A stretch of DNA of 58,748 nucleotides. Origin: Catajapyx aquilonaris (Eukaryota). Below the pieces are notes generated by a model that was not told where the DNA came from, ran no database searches, and was given only the letters and a program-made list of their open reading frames with translations. A program made the translations under genes and the position numbers. Where the stretch lies: NCBI GenBank assembly GCA_000934665.2, contig KZ538616.1, forward strand, positions 1-58,748, in the 5' to 3' direction. Shown in pieces: positions 11,213 through 56,300 of the stretch; the first letter of the stretch is position 1, and each line of letters opens with the position of its first letter.

Positions 11213-11260
11213 TTAATATATTATTTTTTATACATGTTCTATTTATGTGCATTTTATATA

Positions 11261-11602
11261 CAGGGTGTTTCAACTTTTTTGTCTGAACAGTTATCGGAAA
11301 ATTGCACGTAGCTGCTACTTTGTAAGCAGTGACTTGCAAACTGTGATTTTTCGGAGGAACGAGGGATATTCCCTGCGAATCGTGGGTTGAAGTGGCATAC
11401 GTGCTGCCCGCTGAAAATTGGGGGCCAAGCCTGGAAAAAAGAGGGTCACACATAGCCATGGGAATGATGGGATGTGTGACCCTCGTTTTCCCCATTCCCC
11501 ATTCCTCCGACAAATCACCGGTTGCAAGTCACTGCTTACAAAGTAGTTCAGCTACGTGCAATTTTCCGATAATTGTTCGGAGAAAAAAGTTTAAACACCC
11601 TG
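11261..11602. mobile_element. Tc1/mariner-type MITE, 342 bp
   Basis: TA|CAGGGTGTTT...AAACACCCTG|TA with ~100-bp imperfect terminal inverted repeats (TIRs), e.g. TTATCGGAAAATTGCACGTAGCTG vs CAGCTACGTGCAATTTTCCGATAA and CTACTTTGTAAGCAGTGACTTGCAA vs TTGCAAGTCACTGCTTACAAAGTAG. Confidence 0.92.
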
Positions 11603-13216
11603 TATAAGATATGAAAGTCACATTTAAATGATTTCGAGGTATTGGGGTTTGAAGCAAGGTTGGAAGACTGCATAGTTGTACAGTATGAATTATATTGAAA
11701 AATTTTTAGGCTGTAATTTTTCTTCTCAGCTATCTGGCAAGGCTATCAGCAGGTGCCTTTGAGGACTAAGTTATTTATAATGAACTATGCTTCACTCAAT
11801 TTTGACAAAAATATGGATAGTTCTGCATTTTGGGCTACTTTTTGTGATTATTTATTCTGATTAAATTAAGCAGGCTGTGATTGAAAGAAAAATATTTTCC
11901 AATCACGGCTTTCTTTCAATCTGTCACGTCCTTCACGTTGGGTGTAAGATCGATATAGATGACTATTAATAATACGCTTACGAGTTGTAACGTAGAACCT
12001 GTCTATTAATATTAATATTCTCTGGATAAAGTAGGGCCCTTTTTGGGAAAAATTGTTCATGCAGTTGGTGCTTATTTTCTGGGGCTATTTTTGCAATGTA
12101 TGAACGCAAATTTCCCATAATTTCATAAAGTTATATGGGTCCTGTGCACAACCATGCACAAGCACGAAAATGTTCTATGCGACCACATTTTATCAAATAT
12201 TAACTGAAATCTAACCTGCATTCAATTGCCACGAATTCTACCAATGTCCTGATTTTAAAAAACAACATTACAATTTTATTTTCCAAACTACCGCATTCCA
12301 ACTAACAACTTGTTTTATGACCGTGTTTCCGCGGGGATTGACCAGCACCGCCCTGCAAACTGTGTGCGAGAATTTTTGGATATCTTCAGTTATTTTTTTT
12401 CGGTGTTTAATTATTTTGAGTTCATCCAACCGGCCTTAAATATTTTTTGATATATAGGAAGCCTATAACATGTATTTGCCTATCAACTTTTCCTATCAAT
12501 TTGCTGTTGGGAAAGGTGGTCAGTATACCGTAATTAGTTTCTGGTAGGGAAATTCTTTGGCCTATGATAAAGCCAAACTACTCTATATGTATCATATTTG
12601 GCTACGAGGCTTGTAATTACGGTGTGCGTAGGCAATTAAATTTCGAGTTTGTTATAGCAATGGATGCACATGGAGTATCCTAGCTCTGGTTGACATGTGG
12701 TGATATGCCCTGCAGTAATATACTATAAAATACACCAAGTTACATTTATAATTATTTTATATCCTTAAAAGGGTAGTTAGTGGTATCCGGATACCTCCAA
12801 ATGTAAAGATTCTAATTAGTAGAGAAATTGGAATTTAATTTTTCCGATCACACTGAGCGTTTTTGTGTGCGTATAAGTGATAACAGACGTTGCTAATACT
12901 TTTGAACCCCAGCCTGACGCATTCTTAATGCCGCTTCTTTGTTGTCCTATATTTACGGCATTTTGTGCCAAGGTGATATATAAATCCCGACCCCTCCAGC
13001 GACTTCCTGTTGGAGATAGTTAGCGCCCTTGAGCGTCAGGAATATCATATCTGGGAAAATCCGGAGATCTCCGTGTAATCCTATTCGGGCTTCAAATGTC
13101 CTGCATATAAATTTAATGGGGCGCTTTACGGCCAATTGGGATTAGTCTGGAATCTTGGGTGGGCTGCCTTGGTGAAAAGGTCGTCCCCTGACGAGCCTCC
13201 TCTTGTAGCACGTGTA

Positions 13217-13450: not shown

Positions 13451-13594
13451 TTTAAGAAATCGAGGAAGAGAAGTGGCCGATGGCGATCGGAATCCGATAC
13501 ATTGATTGGTTGGCAGGCCAGCGTAAAAACAACAACCTTAAGTTATAACTCCCGACGAAACCGATCCTTCTGCCAATCAACCCGTAGCAATGTT

Positions 13595-13645
13595 CACTAG
13601 ATGGCAGCACCGTGGAATGGGCGCTGCGGTGCCTCCATCTATCAG
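13595..13645. promoter_or_regulatory. Inverted pair of CTCF-like motifs
   Basis: CACTAGATGGCAGCAC (+, 13595-13610) fits the CTCF core CCASYAGRKGGCRS apart from the first base. The minus strand at 13627-13645 reads CTGATAGATGGAGGCACCG, a weaker copy. Confidence 0.45.
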
Positions 13646-14991
13646 CGAAATGGTCGGTTTGGTAACCGGTACGTCTCTTCGCACAGTATTTTTGCGAGCA
13701 TCGACTTTGGTGAGCCTTCTCATCTCGTCTGTTGGAGGGGGAGGCAGGGAGGTGTGTGTGGAGGGAAGGAGAGAAAAGGTGGCCGTTCGCAGTCGGAGCA
13801 GCTCCGGGCGTCATCCAGCATCACGGCAACGACTGCGATTGCGGGAAGGGCCGGGTCCCCCTGAAATATGGGTCCGGGCCGGTGTGGCGCGCCCGCCCTT
13901 GCCTTCCATTTGTATTCCGGGGTCCTCGCCTTCGTTTTCTTTCCCGCACTCCATCCATTTGGAATCGGATGGTGGCGATGGTGCTGAGGGGCGAGCCGGA
14001 GGAGCCAACATGCCCGCCCAGCCCCACCCCACCCAACAGCCTTCGCCTCCGACTCCATCCGACGAGTGCACTTCCAGGGACAGACGTACCAACTCTGCTC
14101 CGGTGCAGCTTCCGGGGTGTCGAGCACCAGACCCCTGCCGATGGGGGAAGGGAAATTGAAACGGTTCAAGGGAGAGGAGGCAACTCTTCCTTTTTTTTCT
14201 TTATAAATGGGGGTTCGGCCGGTTGCTGCAAATTGCAGTTCTGGGGGGGGNGGGGGTGTATTCAATGGGATTTAAGGCGGGAAGGTTGAAAATTGCGTTA
14301 CGTATGGGTGACGGACGTATGATGCCGAGAGGGACAAGTAGCATTGGAAAAGGGTGCATGTCAAATGATTTATTTCTCATTAGAAATCATGGCATATATT
14401 ATTGCTTCGGAAAGTGCTTCACATGTCAGGTCAGGGAAGCAATATTCTGAACTAGTCGTAAGTAGTGTAGATGCACAATCCACTTAACTTTTAACTGAAT
14501 CAGTTTTATATGTAGCCTGAGTGCCCCTGAATTAGGGCAAGGTGGAGCACAAGAGAGGCACATAGGTTAGCGGACTCGCAGGATAAAAACTGTTGGTCAA
14601 CACGGAGGGCCTTTTTCTTCTCTGGAGGAAAGGATCGTGTGTGCCTATCTCGCAGGATGTGGGTTGGGATCATCGACATAACGCGGAAAATATTAACACT
14701 AGCTCAGAGGAGGTGACACGGAATTAACGATAAGGGAATGTGGCTGCTTTAATAAGACAAATCTTCTGGAAAGAACCACCTCTCTGTCATTGCCAGGGTT
14801 GTGCAAAGCCATTGAGGAGTCTAGATGAGTCACCCCAGTCAAGATATGTGCTAGGGGAAATATATTGTAGTAATTTATGTTTATGCACCCTCAGTATATG
14901 TCATAATGGTGCGGAATAATGGACAATTTGGTATAAACATTTTCTTTCAAAAGATGACAAAATGCCACACTTTTTATAGCCTGCATAATCA

Positions 14992-28500: not shown

Positions 28501-28924
28501 TTTAAGCTGACCCCAAGAGAGGTAATTATTCCTAACCCGTTCCTACATGAGTCAAAATCTACATGTTTTACTTTAAGTCACTAAAAGCACATGACTCTCG
28601 TGTCAGGAATTATTATAAAGGATGTTTCACAAATTTGAGGGGCAGAAAAGAGTGTAGGTCTCAGCTTTCAGGTTTTACTCGTAGTATAGTGTATATCATA
28701 GCAACCTGTGTCAACATTGTATTTTTTAAAATGAGGACAGACTTTGTGAAATTATCCAAGGAATGGAGGAAACACACTTTTCATCAGGATAGAATATCAG
28801 TTTGCGTTACTTGGCCGAAATTTGTTATCTTAAGTAGCTACTTAGTTTTCCAAGCCACCAAGGGTGGTCCTGTAGTTCCCATCAACCCATACCATTGACA
28901 TCAATAGTACCCACGGTCGGTGTA

Positions 28925-29006
28925 TAGGTGGGTCCCTTTTACGACGTTTCATTTTACGACCCTGTCTTGCTGGAACCGTACCCCGTCGTTAAACGGGGCC
29001 TACCTG
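28925..29006. mobile_element. Short pogo/Tigger-like MITE, 82 bp
   Basis: TA|TAGGTGGGTCCCTTTTACGACG...CGTCGTTAAACGGGGCCTACCTG|TA. The right TIR reverse-complements to CAGGTAGGCCCCGTTTAACGACG. TA flanks on both sides. Confidence 0.72.
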
Positions 29007-29030
29007 TATATCCAACCGAAAGTAAACAAG

Positions 29031-29040
29031 CTATATAAAA
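29031..29040 (+). promoter_or_regulatory. Candidate TATA box upstream of the LDH-like ORF
   Basis: CTATATAAAA lies about 230 bp upstream of the ATG. There is no upstream ATG between about 29060 and 29265. The initiator match is weak. Confidence 0.25.
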
Positions 29041-29265
29041 TCCCCCTGAAAATGCATAGCTTTCGAGTTATTATTGTTGGAACTCCCATTTAAAAGTGTA
29101 TTCCCTCCGCCATTGGGTCTTAGTACTTACCTAAGCGAGAGTCATATCACTAGTACTGTAGCCTAAAGCATTATTACCCCCAACATATTGATTCCTCTAG
29201 AGAAGTCAGACAAAGCATCTTCCAGAAGTGAATCAGCTAGGGACCAATACTGCAAGTAAAAACAG

Positions 29266-30264
29266 ATGGCTCTAGCTAAGATGCTTTTGACTGAGGTGGA
29301 GAAGCCACTGATAACCAGCGGGTCAAAGGTGACCGTGGTCGGAGTTGGCCAGGTCGGAATGGCCTGCGCTTTCTCCATCTTGACTGATCCGAATATGGGA
29401 AGCGAGCTGGCCTTGGTGGACGTCAATGCAGAGAAGCTGAAAGGCGAGATGATGGACCTACAGAATGGCCTGAGCTTCCTTCGGAACCTGAAGGTGTCAG
29501 CCAGCACCGACTTCGCAGTTTCGGCCAACTCCAAGTTGGTGGTGATAACAGCAGGAGCTCGCCAGAAAGACGGGGAATCACGGCTGAACTTGATTCAGCG
29601 CAATGTGGACATCTTCAAAGGCATCGTCCCAACCCTTGTCAAGCACAGCCCCAACGCCGTCTTCTTGGTGGTCAGCACCCCAGTGGACATCCTCACCTAC
29701 GTGGCCTGGAAGCTAAGCGGACTGCCTCGAAACAAGGTCATCGGCACAGGGACCCACCTGGACAGCTCCAGGTTCCGGTTCCTCATGTCCGAGCGTTTGG
29801 GAGTGGCACCTGCCAGCGTCCAAGGATGGATCATAGGAGAGCAAGGAGACTCATGTGTGCCCGTGTGGTCCAGCGCCAATGTGGCTGGAGTTCGTCTGAG
29901 AGACCTTAACCCTGACCTGGGCACGTCCAGAGACAAGGAGAACTGGGGTGACATTCACAAGCAAATCATCCAGAGCGCCTACGACATCGTCAAGTTCAAA
30001 GGCTACACCTCCTGGGGCATCGGGGTGGCCGTGTGCAGCATCGTCAGGTCCATCATGCACAACGTCAGGAACATCGCCTGCCTTTCAGTCATGATGAAAG
30101 GCTACCACGGCGTCACTAGCGAGGTGTTCCTCTCCCTACCCTGCATCATAGGTGAGAACGGGGTCACCCATGTGATCAATCAGAACCTCACTGAAGAAGA
30201 GAGGAACTCCTTGCAGCTGTCTGCCTCGCAAATTACAGAGCTCCAAGGCCAGATCAAGTTGTAA
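29266..30264 (+). CDS. Ldh: L-lactate dehydrogenase-like protein, intronless paralogue (probable retrogene) with His193Gln and Asn138Thr active-site substitutions
   Basis: Uninterrupted 332-aa ORF, GC-rich at third codon positions relative to its flanks. Motifs: Rossmann KVTVVGVGQVG, LVDV (Asp52), GEMMDLQ, ITAGARQKDGESRLNLIQRN (Gln100, Arg106), LDSSRFRFLMSERLGVAP (Asp166, Arg169), KGYTSW (Thr248), VFLSLPC. The sequence is arthropod Ldh-like throughout. Canonical SNPVD is STPVD and canonical GEHGDS is GEQGDS. Confidence 0.97.
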   Translation: MALAKMLLTEVEKPLITSGSKVTVVGVGQVGMACAFSILTDPNMGSELALVDVNAEKLKGEMMDLQNGLSFLRNLKVSASTDFAVSANSKLVVITAGARQKDGESRLNLIQRNVDIFKGIVPTLVKHSPNAVFLVVSTPVDILTYVAWKLSGLPRNKVIGTGTHLDSSRFRFLMSERLGVAPASVQGWIIGEQGDSCVPVWSSANVAGVRLRDLNPDLGTSRDKENWGDIHKQIIQSAYDIVKFKGYTSWGIGVAVCSIVRSIMHNVRNIACLSVMMKGYHGVTSEVFLSLPCIIGENGVTHVINQNLTEEERNSLQLSASQITELQGQIKL

Positions 30265-30367
30265 GCAGCCAAATTCTGATAACCATCAGTCGCTGATGTA
30301 AATCAACTTCAAAAAATAATGTAACATTGGAGTTAAAAACTTTTCTTTACAGAGGTATACATCAGCA

Positions 30368-30373
30368 AATAAA
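30368..30373 (+). terminator. Candidate polyadenylation signal for the LDH-like gene
   Basis: AATAAA about 100 nt after the stop codon, followed ~25 nt later by a GU/U-rich tract (TGTGTGATTTTTTGGG). Confidence 0.5.
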
Positions 30374-31868
30374 TATATTGTAATAACCGCATACTGTGTG
30401 ATTTTTTGGGTACAACTACTGGCAATTCTTGGACTATTTTGTGTACCCTTAATTGTTAACATTGCTAAAATTAATAATTGTACCGAAGCACCCTTTAGGA
30501 ACATTAGAACTCGTTGGCCCATACTGTACGTTTAAATTACTTCCTCTTTTTACACACTGCACTAGAGTAGTAGTAGAATGCAGTGCAGAAGAGTCGGGGG
30601 CTTTTACACGATAAGCGCGATGAAGGATGAGAGCGCGCGCTTCAAAATCAAGTGCGAACTAGTCTGGGAGTAGCTGCAAAAAGGCCGCTGTCATTCCCGG
30701 ACATGGACAAATGGGGCCAGAGCCTGGATGAAAGGTGGGAAAGAAAAGCATCTCATTCACACTGCATTTGTCTCCTTCTCGTTGTACTCTTCCGGGAAGG
30801 ATTCCGGAAGCAGACTAGGGGAAGAACTCCCCTATTCATGTTAACAACTTGGAAGACAGATCCCAGCTTAAACGTCTCTTCATCCTGGACATCAGATAAC
30901 AAGCACTCCTTAGATAAGCTGCAGGTTGCCTTTATTTCAGGCGTAGTTATTCGATGAAACTTCCTATTTCCTTTGGGTGTCATCATTATTGGCACAAAAA
31001 AAAACCTGTTTTACCCCGGCGGAATTTTGCATGTGATACAGATCCTTACGGAAGGGTGGAGTTGTTCGTTCCGCATCTTCATAATAGGAGAATCGGGGAG
31101 TCCCCCTTTTTCTCTTGCCAGATATGCCCCATCGGGAGGGCGCAGCAATTTGAGCGGAGGTGCCTGCGTGATGCAGGCCTGATGGCCGCCCCCGACCGCA
31201 ATCTAAATGAAGATCGGAGTGGCCGGCCGGTTGGGTGTTGGTGCGCTGGGTAGGGGGAGTAGGGAGGTAGGGGGTGGAGGGGGGGGGGAGTCCCGAAAGT
31301 TGATTATATCCCGTTATGGTCTCATTAGGCCGAGCGCGTCTTGGCCCGGGCCCGCCAGCCGATGGGCCCTTTAATACAGCTGTTAGCAAAGGCCCCGGGT
31401 CCTGGATGGACGTGACCGGAGGTCGGCCACCCCCGGCCATACCCAACCCATCCCCTCCTACCAAACACATGGCGCGCGACGCACCAGCCCTGCTTTATGG
31501 TAGTTGCGGAGGGTGTCTGCGCCCGGAAAACCCTGGAGCTGGACCTACTGTAACTAACTCTTGTGCGACTCTGGCCACAAAATTTGGGGAGTGTCCGGCG
31601 CCTTCTGGCCTTACCCGATGGACATATGAAAAAGTTTATACATTATGAAGTGCGGTGCAGTCACTCTATGGTTGACCTCCCTAGCCACGTCTAAATTCAT
31701 GTCACCCACCAAATTTCTTCAGCGTATCAGTGTACATCTTGCAGATTCCCCCATCCCCCAACCTATCTAGACGCCTCTTGCCTTGCACAAAGCCGCTTCC
31801 CTTTTACAACCTTCCAATTACTAGCCATAACTTATAATTATCAAAGGAAGAGAGGTGGAGGGAGGGTG

Positions 31869-38136: not shown

Positions 38137-38678
38137 CAGGGTTTCCAAATTCGTGGGGCATTACCGAAGCAGTGGTAGCGGAGGGGTTATGGTATCCGAC
38201 TGCTAATCGGGAGGTCCTGGGTTGGAATCCCTGTGGCCGCCGACCCTGACCGTGGTTTTCTGTGGTTTCCCATGGTCTCACCAGGAAAATTCTGGGGTCG
38301 TGTCCGTAATTATAGGCCACAGCCGCTTCCCTCCGTCCCTATCCCATCCCCATATACGAGAAGTAAAAATGAAACCAAGAGTTCCAGATAAAATAAAAAA
38401 ATATGGTGGTATCCCACCCCCCTAAGAGGCCCCATGGCTCTAGCACGGGGTACACATAATTTATTATTATTATTAAATTCGTGGGGCTTTTTAAATAACT
38501 TATATCGCCTGATTGTATGCAGTTATTTTTTTGTAACTTGTTGTTGTGCTCCTAACAACTGCTATATCCGACCCCCTGGGTGTAATGGGGAACCTGGATC
38601 GGGGCGCAACAAGCTACAAAACTACTATAGGGCGATATCAGTTATTAAAAACGCTACTCACGAATTTGAAGCACCCTG
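38137..38678. mobile_element. Tc1/mariner-type foldback MITE (~214 bp) interrupted by a SINE
   Basis: With the SINE and one TSD removed, the left arm is TA|CAGGGTTTCCAAATTCGTGGGGCTTTTTAAATAACTTATATCGCC. The right arm reverse-complements to CAGGGTGCTTCAAATTCGTGAGTAGCGTTTTTAATAACTGATATCGCC. Inner arms are TTTTGTAACTTGTTG / CAACAAGCTACAAAA. Confidence 0.85.
38163..38474 (+). mobile_element. tRNA-derived SINE, full-length copy 2 (312 bp)
   Basis: A-box-like TAGCGGAGGGG, stem-loop TCCGA-CTGCTAA-TCGGG, B box GGTTGGAATCCC, central GGTTTTCTGTGGTTTCCC...CAGGAAAATTCTGGG...AGGCCACAGCCGCTTCCCTCC domain and a (TTA)n tail. The 16-bp TSD AAATTCGTGGGGC[A/T]TT is at 38147-38162 and 38475-38490. Confidence 0.93.
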
Positions 38679-53331: not shown

Positions 53332-56300
53332 TGAGATCACCCTTTCTCCCCTCTCAGTCCAGTGACTGACGTTGAGGACAATATAGCAGTAAACATGAAA
53401 AAGTCGACTCTAATCACTCTCACGTGATTTTCCAACCTTGTTTTTGAGTCTGAATACCCAAAATTTAGGATTTTTCTAATCAATAATATTTCTAGGGTTT
53501 GCTCCAATTGAATTTTCTATCAGCATTATGGTCATTGATCTCTCACACCGTACATTATCAAAGTACCGTACATTAAAAATGAACCAAGTACAGTACGAAG
53601 CAGTACCTTGTACTGTGGGATTCCTTATGGGAAATAGTAGCCTGCACCACAAATTGGCACTGGAGAAAGGTAGACCCTAAGGTTTCCGCTCATTCGAAAT
53701 GCGGCGGGAAGCTGGCCATGTCCCATGGTGGACAGATCCCCCACCATGTCTCTATACCTCTCTGGCTCTCTCCTGGTCCCGAATGTGAAGACCGACCGAC
53801 CATTACACACCCCCGTACTTCCCCCAAAATTTTATTGCGTCACAGTTGGCCACAGAGTGGGACTTACGACCTTCTGGTTTAGTCATCCTGACCCATAAAC
53901 GTAGGGCGCGCCTCTAATTCATCCCCCGATAAAATTCCGCAGGCGAATTCCTGTCCCGAAAGAGTTTAGAGAGTGGGGATGTACTCAGTCGAAAAAAAAA
54001 CTAGTGGGGGAAGGCAGGGTAGGGAATGGGGAGGGTTGGAAAAAAAAAAGACGAACTTCATTTTCATTTTCTCCCGTTCGCACGCGCCACCGTCATTGTC
54101 AATTTGGCGGCGTTAACACTATCATTCAGAGCCACATTCGTCCATTTACTACTGTATTTACCTCCTCATTTACTACTCTCTCCCCTCCACAGTCGCAGGC
54201 CGTTTCGAGAGGGCAAGGGTGGACATAAAGTGAGGGCCAAGGGGCAAGGGGGAAAGATAAATAAATAAATTTAACAAACAACAAAAAAAAAAGGTTCCAA
54301 GTCTTTGGAGAGCAGGAGGGAATTCCTAGGACATGATGGCCAAATTACACCCACTGGCCTTTTGGGATGACTCAAGTTAATAGGCTATCCTGCAGGCTGC
54401 CCCAATATCGCATTACTTGTCACTGACTTTATTGCATTATTAAAAGGCGAGCACCGAATGGCCCCTACTCTGCTGTATTATTATTTATTAGTTTTTTTGG
54501 GGTAACGGCTAAGTAAACGGGGAGGAGAGACGTTGCACCTGCTACAGAGGGTAGTCTTACTGTGCAGTAAAGTGGCAATCACAACTCATACAAGGGGCCA
54601 TAATCAGGATGTAAAACTTACGAAATGGCCATTACCGAGTGAAGGTACCTTTGTGCGAATTGCAGCAAGTTATAGGCTTTAAGTGGTACATTGTATCTTG
54701 TCACGCTCGATATGTAGTCATCCCCTCCAAAAAATAGTAAGGTTGTAACCAGTCTGTCGGATGGTTTACCTTGCCTCGCACGCCAATAGGCGTTAAATGG
54801 CTAATTTCATTCCGAGTGTATCCCGTGCAGCCGTCGATGGGCAGCCCAGCTTCCAACTGGAGGCATGACAGGAATAGCACCATAGAACGCAGCCTTCTCA
54901 CCCTGGCCTCACCCATGAGCTGCATGGGAGGGGCAAGTAAAATGGGGGGAAAGTGTGCAGGGTGGTGGTGGTTTTGGAGGGAGGAGGGAGGGAAAAGAGG
55001 AGGGGGGAGGGAGGGAGAATGCTGGAAAACGATGCAAATTTCATTACTTCGCACTGTCCGGTCCCAACTCCCTGCACTAAATGTTAATATCCCGGACCAA
55101 AGCCGCAGTCGTAAAGTAGGAAGCCCAGATGTTGACGAAATAAACATGTCATTGCGGGCCAGGGCCATGACAGCCTCCCAGCGCCGGTGCTGGCAGCGCA
55201 AAAGGCTCAAAACTATACTGGAGGGACCACACTGGGGTGGGGCGGTTATGATATCGCTTTTGCTACAGAGATAATCCTGCCAGAGACATCTTACTCTTGC
55301 AATTTGCGACGGAACTTCACTCAAAAAAAAAGTTCCAAGAAGAAAGGTAACGCGTGTGACTGGTGTGAGGTGTCTGAATATGGGAAATGTACTTCCTAAT
55401 GCATAAATGCTGGTCAGATGATTCAAAATGGTGCCACAAACTGCTGCAATAGTTCGCAAAATTCGAATAGTAAAATGATCAGTTATTCATTTTTTTTTTA
55501 ATCTGATAGCAACAGGGTGCCAAGTGTGGGCTTTCAGTCACCTTCAAACAATCTGAAAAATTAATGGTTGCCTTTTCCGTCGTCCACCATAAACATGGCC
55601 TATGTATTCTGAAAATTTATTTCCAGGAGGGTATGTCTCTTCCAATTAAGGGTGTTGGGTTCCACTACGCGCACAGCTCACTTTATGAACCTCGTAATAA
55701 CTAGCCTCTCCCCCCCACCGCCTCACCCAACTTTCATCTTTTTGCACCGCATTGAAATTTACAGTGGCTGTAATATGGATGCAAACAGATTCGCACAGCG
55801 TTTTGTCACGTGGCGGTGGCGTGGGTGGGGGTAAGGGGGGTGGGGTGGAACAAAAAAAAAATCCGGAGAGTGTAACCCCGGACTGGTTTATCTGGTTCTT
55901 TCCATCTGCTCATCCGGTTATGAGTTACGTCGCTTTTGTCGCTGTTTAACATCCGCGAGCCGAGTTTGTTTTTAGAGCGTCCCTGGGACTTTGTAATGTG
56001 TTTTCCTCACCAGTTGGCGCCGAGTTACGTCAGGAATGTCCACACCGGGCAATACCTGATGTGGGCTTTTTGATTTGTGATTATTGCCCGTGTCGGAGGA
56101 CCGCGAATAAAATGGCCAGGACATAACCCGGTGGTCCCTATCTCAAGTGACTACTAGAATTTAGAATACGTATTTAGTAAAAATGTATAGATCCCTGGGC
56201 TGGAGCAGTTACAACACGTGCACACAATGCAACCTAGCAATGCTATTTCTTTTTAAAGGCGAATACTGCTCAAACGGTGCAAATTGGCCGTGTGAAATGA

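Follow-up and report, generated by a model that had tools for sequence, protein, structure and literature searches.

Can a reading frame whose product lacks the catalytic histidine of its enzyme family be one that selection keeps, or is it a dead gene that has not yet broken? This question is raised by a locus in the window, by which we mean the whole stretch of Catajapyx aquilonaris DNA analysed here (58,748 nt, 58.7 kb). The locus is a single-exon open reading frame (ORF) on the + strand (29266..30264), which runs from one ATG to one stop over 332 codons plus the stop codon and encodes a 332-aa protein of the lactate dehydrogenase (LDH) family. Counted from stop to stop, its frame of 334 codons is the longest in the window (the runner-up has 261), and the earlier note's description of it as free of stops and frameshifts is correct, all 332 codons being uninterrupted.

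Family and active site of the encoded protein

The protein is a homologue of the LDH/MDH superfamily with both Pfam domains present at full length: Ldh_1_N (PF00056) occupies residues 21-160 (1.4e-44, 152 bits, cut-off 27) and Ldh_1_C (PF02866) residues 163-325 (3.5e-30, 105.7 bits, cut-off 22.6). Vertebrate LDH-A chains are its top solved relatives (human LDHA 4zvv_A, E 1.7e-126), and past a one-residue insertion near residues 41-45 its numbering equals that of human LDHA. Among the best 120 of 6461 matches, the named top matches come from insects, crustaceans and centipedes at 59-65% identity; judged by these nearest named relatives, it is an LDH of the arthropod type. GC3 of the ORF is 0.74, compared with a GC content of 0.446 for the window (background range 0.41-0.45). 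A TATA-like sequence, TATATAAA, lies ~230 nt 5' of the ATG (29032..29039, + strand) and may serve as core promoter, while AATAAA at 30368..30373 (+ strand), ~105 nt past the stop codon and with no A-tail after it, is a candidate polyadenylation signal; the ATG itself has a weak start context, with a C at -3. Twelve other long ORFs near the locus contain no Pfam family. Four minus-strand ORFs of identical length (147 codons) were considered as possible relatives of one another and were rejected as such, at about 46% identity.

Two replacements at the active site had been reported in the earlier note, and both are confirmed by direct reading and by alignment with human LDHA. Codon 193 (29842..29844, + strand) is CAA, which places Gln opposite the catalytic His (GEQGDS), and codon 138 (29677..29679, + strand) is ACC, which places Thr opposite the Asn that contacts substrate and cofactor (VSTPVD). 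Among 240 stored relatives, full-length proteins and fragments together, His is found in all 205 in which the motif around residue 193 could be located, and Asn in 204 of the 208 with a locatable motif around residue 138 (97 of 98 among the full-length ones). The VSTPVD motif is also found in P0235, a 138-aa fragment with 59% identity, and its occurrence in both proteins is taken as convergence. Further replacements affect residues that are the same in 98 of 98 full-length relatives: codon 164 (29755..29757, + strand) encodes His in place of Asn, two residues ahead of Asp166 (GTGTHLDS), codon 186 (29821..29823, + strand) encodes Gln in place of His (VQGWIIGE), at what we take to be His188 of classical LDH numbering in the anion / fructose-bisphosphate site, and codon 67 (29464..29466, + strand) encodes Asn in place of His (DLQNG). 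H67N, N164H and H186Q had been overlooked before, as had S197C and the absence of introns.

The residues described earlier as retained (GxGxxG, Asp52, Gln100, Arg106, Asp166, Arg169 and Thr248) are all present in the human LDHA alignment, and so is Arg99. The NAD-binding Rossmann elements VVGVGQVG and LALVDV, the latter with Asp52, align with their human LDHA equivalents. In the catalytic dyad Asp166 is present and His193 has become Gln; among the substrate residues Arg106, Arg169, Thr248 and Gln100 are kept and Asn138 has become Thr. The protein is an enzyme homologue without essential catalytic residues, which is how a pseudoenzyme is defined. As far as its sequence tells, it belongs by origin to the LDH family and lacks the family's defining enzymatic feature, the His-Asp dyad.

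We aligned the protein with 98 of the 120 listed relatives (320-345 aa), excluding the other 22 as fused or partial. It is off consensus at 21 of the 141 near-invariant columns (at least 95% conserved), whereas the other relatives have a median of 1 departure and at most 10 at the same 141 columns. The fully invariant columns altered include N138T, H193Q, H67N, V110I, N164H, H186Q, S197C, V234I and I242V. Its closest database relative among the matches listed is P0002 (77% identity, 331 aa, from a 1196-nt contig), which is off consensus at 7 of the near-invariant columns and keeps GEHGDS, VSNPVD and GTGTNLD. Nothing more than 77% identical was found among the matches listed. Two protein searches (the best 120 of 6461 matches among proteins of similar length, and the best 120 of 412 among shorter proteins) returned no orthologue with Gln193, and the exact protein is absent from a 15-billion-protein collection.

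Origin of the intronless copy

Four read sets contain the stretch with the ORF, all of them from one sample and one study, and three of these (X1, X2 and X4) were compared. When their contigs were aligned at 80% likeness, all three showed an intron-bearing paralogue (1506-1639 nt, depth 23-30), which differs from the window copy by 37 letters over 29266-29471 and by 83 letters over 29500-29951, corresponding to about 18-19% divergence (~81% identity). Between these two blocks, at 29472..29499 (+ strand), the paralogue has 142 letters in X1, X2 and X4 where the window copy has 28, which marks the position of an intron absent from the latter. At 29951 (+ strand) the match ends and the paralogue continues unlike the window copy, at what is likely to be the position of a second coding intron, and at its 5' end a ...CAG acceptor stands 5 leader letters ahead of its ATG. 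A 1548-nt contig from X5, a second sample of unrecorded library kind under the same species label, has the same differing letters as the genomic paralogue at 40 of 40 listed places, runs uninterrupted through 29266-29924 without the insertion (128 differing letters) and has another 5' leader joined at the same point. This contig therefore represents that paralogue after splicing. X5 has next to none of the window copy's own words, and it counts neither way on expression of that copy.

The window copy has none of the interruptions of the paralogue, as a retrocopy should, and it lies apart from its source gene, the paralogues being on other contigs; a tblastn search of the 58.7-kb window found no second LDH-like sequence in it (next best E 0.17). 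An additional contig of 3748 nt matches the window copy piecewise only, and one loose end starts with M-A-L-V codons, which are the beginning of P0002, so that at least one further LDH-like locus is present in the sample. No poly(A) remnant was found 3' of the ORF, where the sole A run is the A6 at 30311-30316 and the AATAAA is not followed by an A tract, and no target-site duplication was found around it, the sole exact 10-mer pair lying within the CDS and 3' flank. The lack of a tail and of a repeat is unsurprising at about 19% divergence, as a tail may have decayed; since these end marks are absent, the case for a processed copy is carried by the intron argument. Judged from these comparisons, the locus arose long ago as a processed copy of an Ldh mRNA, with the intron-bearing paralogue type as its source. 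The gaps between the two (2 out, 2 out and 1 in, over 659+ nt aligned) amount to a net 3 nt, and the only net length difference is one extra codon in the window copy at 29373..29390 (+ strand), where it reads TDPNMGSE and P0002 reads TQHVASE; the two remaining gaps offset each other. The letters GAATCAG, 29 nt 5' of the ATG, are the same as the last 7 letters of the spliced paralogue's leader, a match that was rejected as too short for homology.

Rate and manner of change

Differences were sorted against P0002, taken as the sister, and against the consensus of 97 outgroup sequences, which gave 35 changes specific to the window copy, 16 specific to P0002, 26 that are ambiguous and 254 identical positions. 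With the outgroups taken one at a time, unique changes were more numerous in the window copy than in P0002 in every case (97 of 97, p<0.05 in 83). A FastTree phylogeny (LG+gamma) pairs the two proteins with a support of 1.0, the branches being 0.215 for the window copy and 0.084 for P0002 on a stem of 0.239, and the protein rate of the former is 2.2-2.6x that of the latter. The fold had previously been called otherwise conserved, a description that fits neither this rate nor the departures at 21 of 141 near-invariant columns. Changes specific to the window copy fall in columns that are at least 95% conserved in 16 of 35 cases (46%), against a background of 142 of 331 (43%), and those specific to P0002 do so in 1 of 16. 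As the window copy changes in background proportion while P0002 avoids conserved columns, the positional rule has been relaxed in the window copy; by its background proportion alone, it would look no different from a neutrally evolving sequence.

The replacements themselves are mild. BLOSUM62 scores are at least 0 in 34 of the 35 replacements specific to the window copy (mean +1.37, a tally that may include changes older than retroposition), compared with 52.7% of random non-synonymous changes (mean -0.40), giving P(>=34/35) = 5.9e-9. The 16 changes at near-invariant columns, among them His to Gln or Asn, Asn to Thr or His, Val to Ile and Leu to Phe, follow the same pattern, 15 of them scoring at least 0 and one scoring -1. 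In simulations, 3.2% of random substitutions make a stop in this ORF, and after 100 changes 5.8% of the simulated frames are still open, after 170 changes 1.1%.

Comparison with the paralogue at the nucleotide level points in the same direction. For 40 of the 143 differences the codon position was read, with 25 at third, 11 at first and 4 at second positions, and by codon these comprise 21 synonymous and 13 non-synonymous differences. By the Nei-Gojobori method, dS is 0.96 and dN 0.14 over 58 codons (ratio 0.14), and without the gapped codons 36-46 (leaving 47 codons) dS is 1.06 and dN 0.12 (ratio 0.11). In the earlier note a dN/dS near 1, together with lack of expression and disrupted orthologues, had been named as a sign of decay; the ratio of 0.11-0.14 is well away from that value, as a figure for both branches jointly, taken from 47-58 of the 332 codons, which all lie in the NAD-binding half, the most conserved one. 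Even with zero replacements in the paralogue, the ratio on the branch of the window copy is at most about 0.3 in the sampled part.

Positions that have been freed, replacements that are mild only and a frame that is open near synonymous saturation together suggest that the fold matters and that the old catalytic job does not. The explanation we favour, with a probability of about 0.58, is that the locus is an old LDH retrogene that is kept by selection and would be unable to perform acid/base catalysis, i.e., a candidate pseudoenzyme. Purifying selection would act on the fold and the reading frame, with the constraints of LDH catalysis lifted. The proposal of a maintained non-catalytic protein, rather than an error or a decaying gene, had already been made in the earlier note; it agrees with all of the selection tests run here, namely the open frame, the single in-frame indel, the third-position bias with its low partial dN/dS and the mild replacements, and had missed the origin as a retrocopy. 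The selection signals could for the most part date from an earlier period in which the gene encoded an active enzyme.

This last point leads to the competing explanation that deserves most attention, although we consider it unlikely: the locus may be a dead or dying processed pseudogene, never functional or recently inactivated, whose open frame and low dN/dS are a legacy. Most retrocopies are non-functional, and this one has lost the catalytic His together with four or more other invariant residues, evolves 2.2-2.6x faster than its nearest relative at the protein level and distributes its changes in background proportion (16/35 vs 142/331); the absence of the exact protein from the 15-billion-protein collection and of an orthologue among the protein matches listed would also be expected. 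The version in which the copy was never functional is hard to sustain, as a dS near 1 implies a neutral branch with well over 170 substitutions, where 1.1% of frames are open, and as neutrality predicts far more non-synonymous change than a dN of 0.12-0.14. The version in which it died recently must account for 16 near-invariant changes of which 15 have a BLOSUM62 score of at least 0 and the other -1 (52.7% at random), and for zero stops or frameshifts beside those 16 changes. Both have to contend with a GC3 that is still 0.74 in a background of 0.41-0.45 GC.

Possible working modes and known parallels

If the locus is a retrogene kept by selection, how might its product work? Without His193, proton transfer to or from the substrate oxygen would have no carrier. 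The cofactor site and the carboxylate clamp are kept, and for this reason binding without useful turnover is thought most likely: the product would be a folded LDH-like subunit, predicted still to bind NAD(H) and probably pyruvate or lactate too, with turnover that is very slow or nil. Its fold and assembly would be as expected from its likeness to solved structures, those of a 63%-identical LDH. The effect of such a subunit would come from binding or assembly, and mixed tetramers with the putatively competent paralogue(s) are the most plausible setting. This mode is favoured because the protein is 77% identical to a canonical relative, a relationship like that between LDH A and B chains; in vertebrates these two chains, which are similarly related to each other, mix freely. 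Loss of activity, retained ligand binding, oligomerisation, any physiological role and expression itself are inferred, whereas the sequence state, the lack of introns, the intron-bearing paralogue, the fast but conservative protein evolution and the low partial dN/dS were observed directly. A fuller picture, which we offer tentatively and as possible rather than probable, is that of a maintained stand-alone pseudoenzyme that binds NAD(H) and pyruvate but does not convert them and, as part of an active LDH tetramer, adjusts lactate metabolism or redox sensing.

It is also conceivable, but improbable, that the protein still works as a 2-hydroxyacid/NAD(H) oxidoreductase, by another mechanism or on another substrate, with His164 or water, for example, serving as proton carrier. 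All cofactor- and carboxylate-binding residues are kept, N164H provides a new His two residues from Asp166, and the conservative pattern of change indicates that the protein matters. In LDH, residue 165 turns its side chain towards the nicotinamide, and by this geometry that of residue 164 should be directed away from the substrate. Moreover, all 205 relatives with a locatable motif have His193, and Asn138 is gone as well. Some apparent pseudoenzymes are described as having 'migrated' catalytic residues (PMC10211241); for LDHA itself, H193A is presented as a catalytically dead mutant that gave no lactate-derived labelling (bioRxiv 10.1101/2023.08.02.551712).

That a normal LDH gene was misread at both codons, through faulty assembly or sequencing, has a negligible probability: contigs built separately from the three read sets span 28900-30600 with 0 differing letters (word depth 19.9-29.9) and 21 distinct near-invariant departures cannot be point errors. 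Nothing was found in favour of such errors; the read sets are a single sample, possibly the source of the assembly, so that their agreement is not independent confirmation. A base-calling slip at codon 138 or 193 is excluded for the read sample. The earlier argument against a base error is upheld by these 21 departures and by the zero differences, at both codons as elsewhere, in three read sets of one sample.

As a candidate pseudoenzyme, the protein can be set beside several known systems. Canonical arthropod LDHs (e.g., P0009 of Schistocerca americana and P0019 of Chionoecetes opilio) are like it in length (331-335 aa) and in their two Pfam domains, are 59-65% identical to it (77% for P0002) and have the NAD-binding and substrate-Arg residues in common with it; it differs from them by His193Gln, Asn138Thr, His67Asn, Asn164His, His186Gln and Ser197Cys and by having no introns. 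In the open-access literature we found no description of a stand-alone LDH paralogue without the catalytic His. LDH is among the most studied enzymes, and if the fuller picture of a tetramer-tuning subunit is true, this would be, as far as our literature search shows, the first dead-subunit regulator described for it. If expressed, the copy would provide a natural case of an LDH fold able to bind and not convert, of dead subunits regulating LDH tetramers as prozymes do elsewhere, and of how a retrocopy can cease to be an enzyme; a copy without expression would instead serve as a warning that an open frame and conservative changes can outlive function.

LDHAL6B is, like the window copy, a retrocopy of the LDH family, but it is mammalian, and with its catalytic residues intact it counts as an enzyme. 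This human gene is described as a retrogene of LDHAL6A that was transcribed once it had gained a promoter (PMC2386082). The working mode thought most likely for the window copy is that of the prozymes, of which trypanosomatid deoxyhypusine synthase and TbPRMT1 are described as cases where a dead paralogue works in hetero-oligomers (PMC3663545, bioRxiv 10.1101/776112). These belong to other enzyme families and organisms, and in them the dead subunit activates the enzyme, whereas for the window copy assembly is a proposal and any effect could go either way. Recruitment of LDH to a non-catalytic, structural role is represented by duck epsilon-crystallin, which is LDH-B4 (PMC10211241); there, however, one gene is shared between the two roles and its product is still active, while the window copy is distinct from the gene of the enzyme and lacks the catalytic His. 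Finally, the LDH-like domain of UEVLD / UEV3 (PDB 2i6t), which matches the protein encoded in the window at E 2e-59, is an LDH fold outside classical lactate metabolism. UEVLD is a vertebrate protein in which this domain is C-terminal (PMC12513931) and fused to a UEV domain, unlike the stand-alone, full-length LDH-like subunit encoded here.

A small family of LDH-like loci

Contigs of X1, X2 and X4, read sets of one sample, were aligned to window positions 29266-30225. Besides the intronless LDH copy (29266-30264, plus strand), at least two LDH-like loci are present in this sample. The first bears introns and is ~81% identical to the intronless copy, and its spliced form is present in X5, a run from a second sample. 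The second, on a contig of 3748 nt, matches the intronless copy only piecemeal, and a loose end opens with codons for M-A-L-V, as does P0002, the nearest database relative. We conclude that the LDH copy and these further loci are a small lineage-specific LDH family.

The threonine that the LDH copy carries at the position of the substrate- and cofactor-contacting Asn138 also occurs elsewhere. A residue other than Asn is found at this motif in 4 of 208 relatives, among them P0235, a 138-aa LDH fragment (59% identical to the LDH copy) that likewise reads VSTPVD.

A short repeat upstream of the LDH copy

When read-derived contigs were aligned to the window, many additional ones piled up over ~75 nt (28937-29011) located 255 nt 5' of the LDH ATG, where summed word depth is 94-329, compared with 20-30 in the flanks. 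The contig copies are 84-88% alike over this stretch, beyond which their sequence diverges from that of the window. A short interspersed repeat of the genome occupies this stretch and stops ~20 nt short of a TATA-like motif (29032-29039).

Other open frames and repeats in the window

None of the 12 other long ORFs checked (130-261 codons; for example, 54701-55486 on the minus strand and 13542-14159 on the plus strand) matched a Pfam family, and by this measure the window holds no recognisable protein-coding gene beyond the LDH copy. A tRNA-Ser(GCT) was called by ARAGORN at 38169-38241 (plus strand), scoring 30 bits against the Rfam tRNA family (gathering score 29). Its inverted partner lies at 320-443, where a second, inverted copy of the sequence (384-443, 82% complementary) is adjoined by a second pair of inverted arms (320-395 and 38230-38305). 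The call and its partner look like tRNA-derived SINE copies rather than a functioning tRNA gene. A further inverted repeat, with arms of 65 nt each at 11250-11314 and 11549-11613 (89% complementary) and a 234-nt spacer, resembles a MITE-like element or a foldback in shape.
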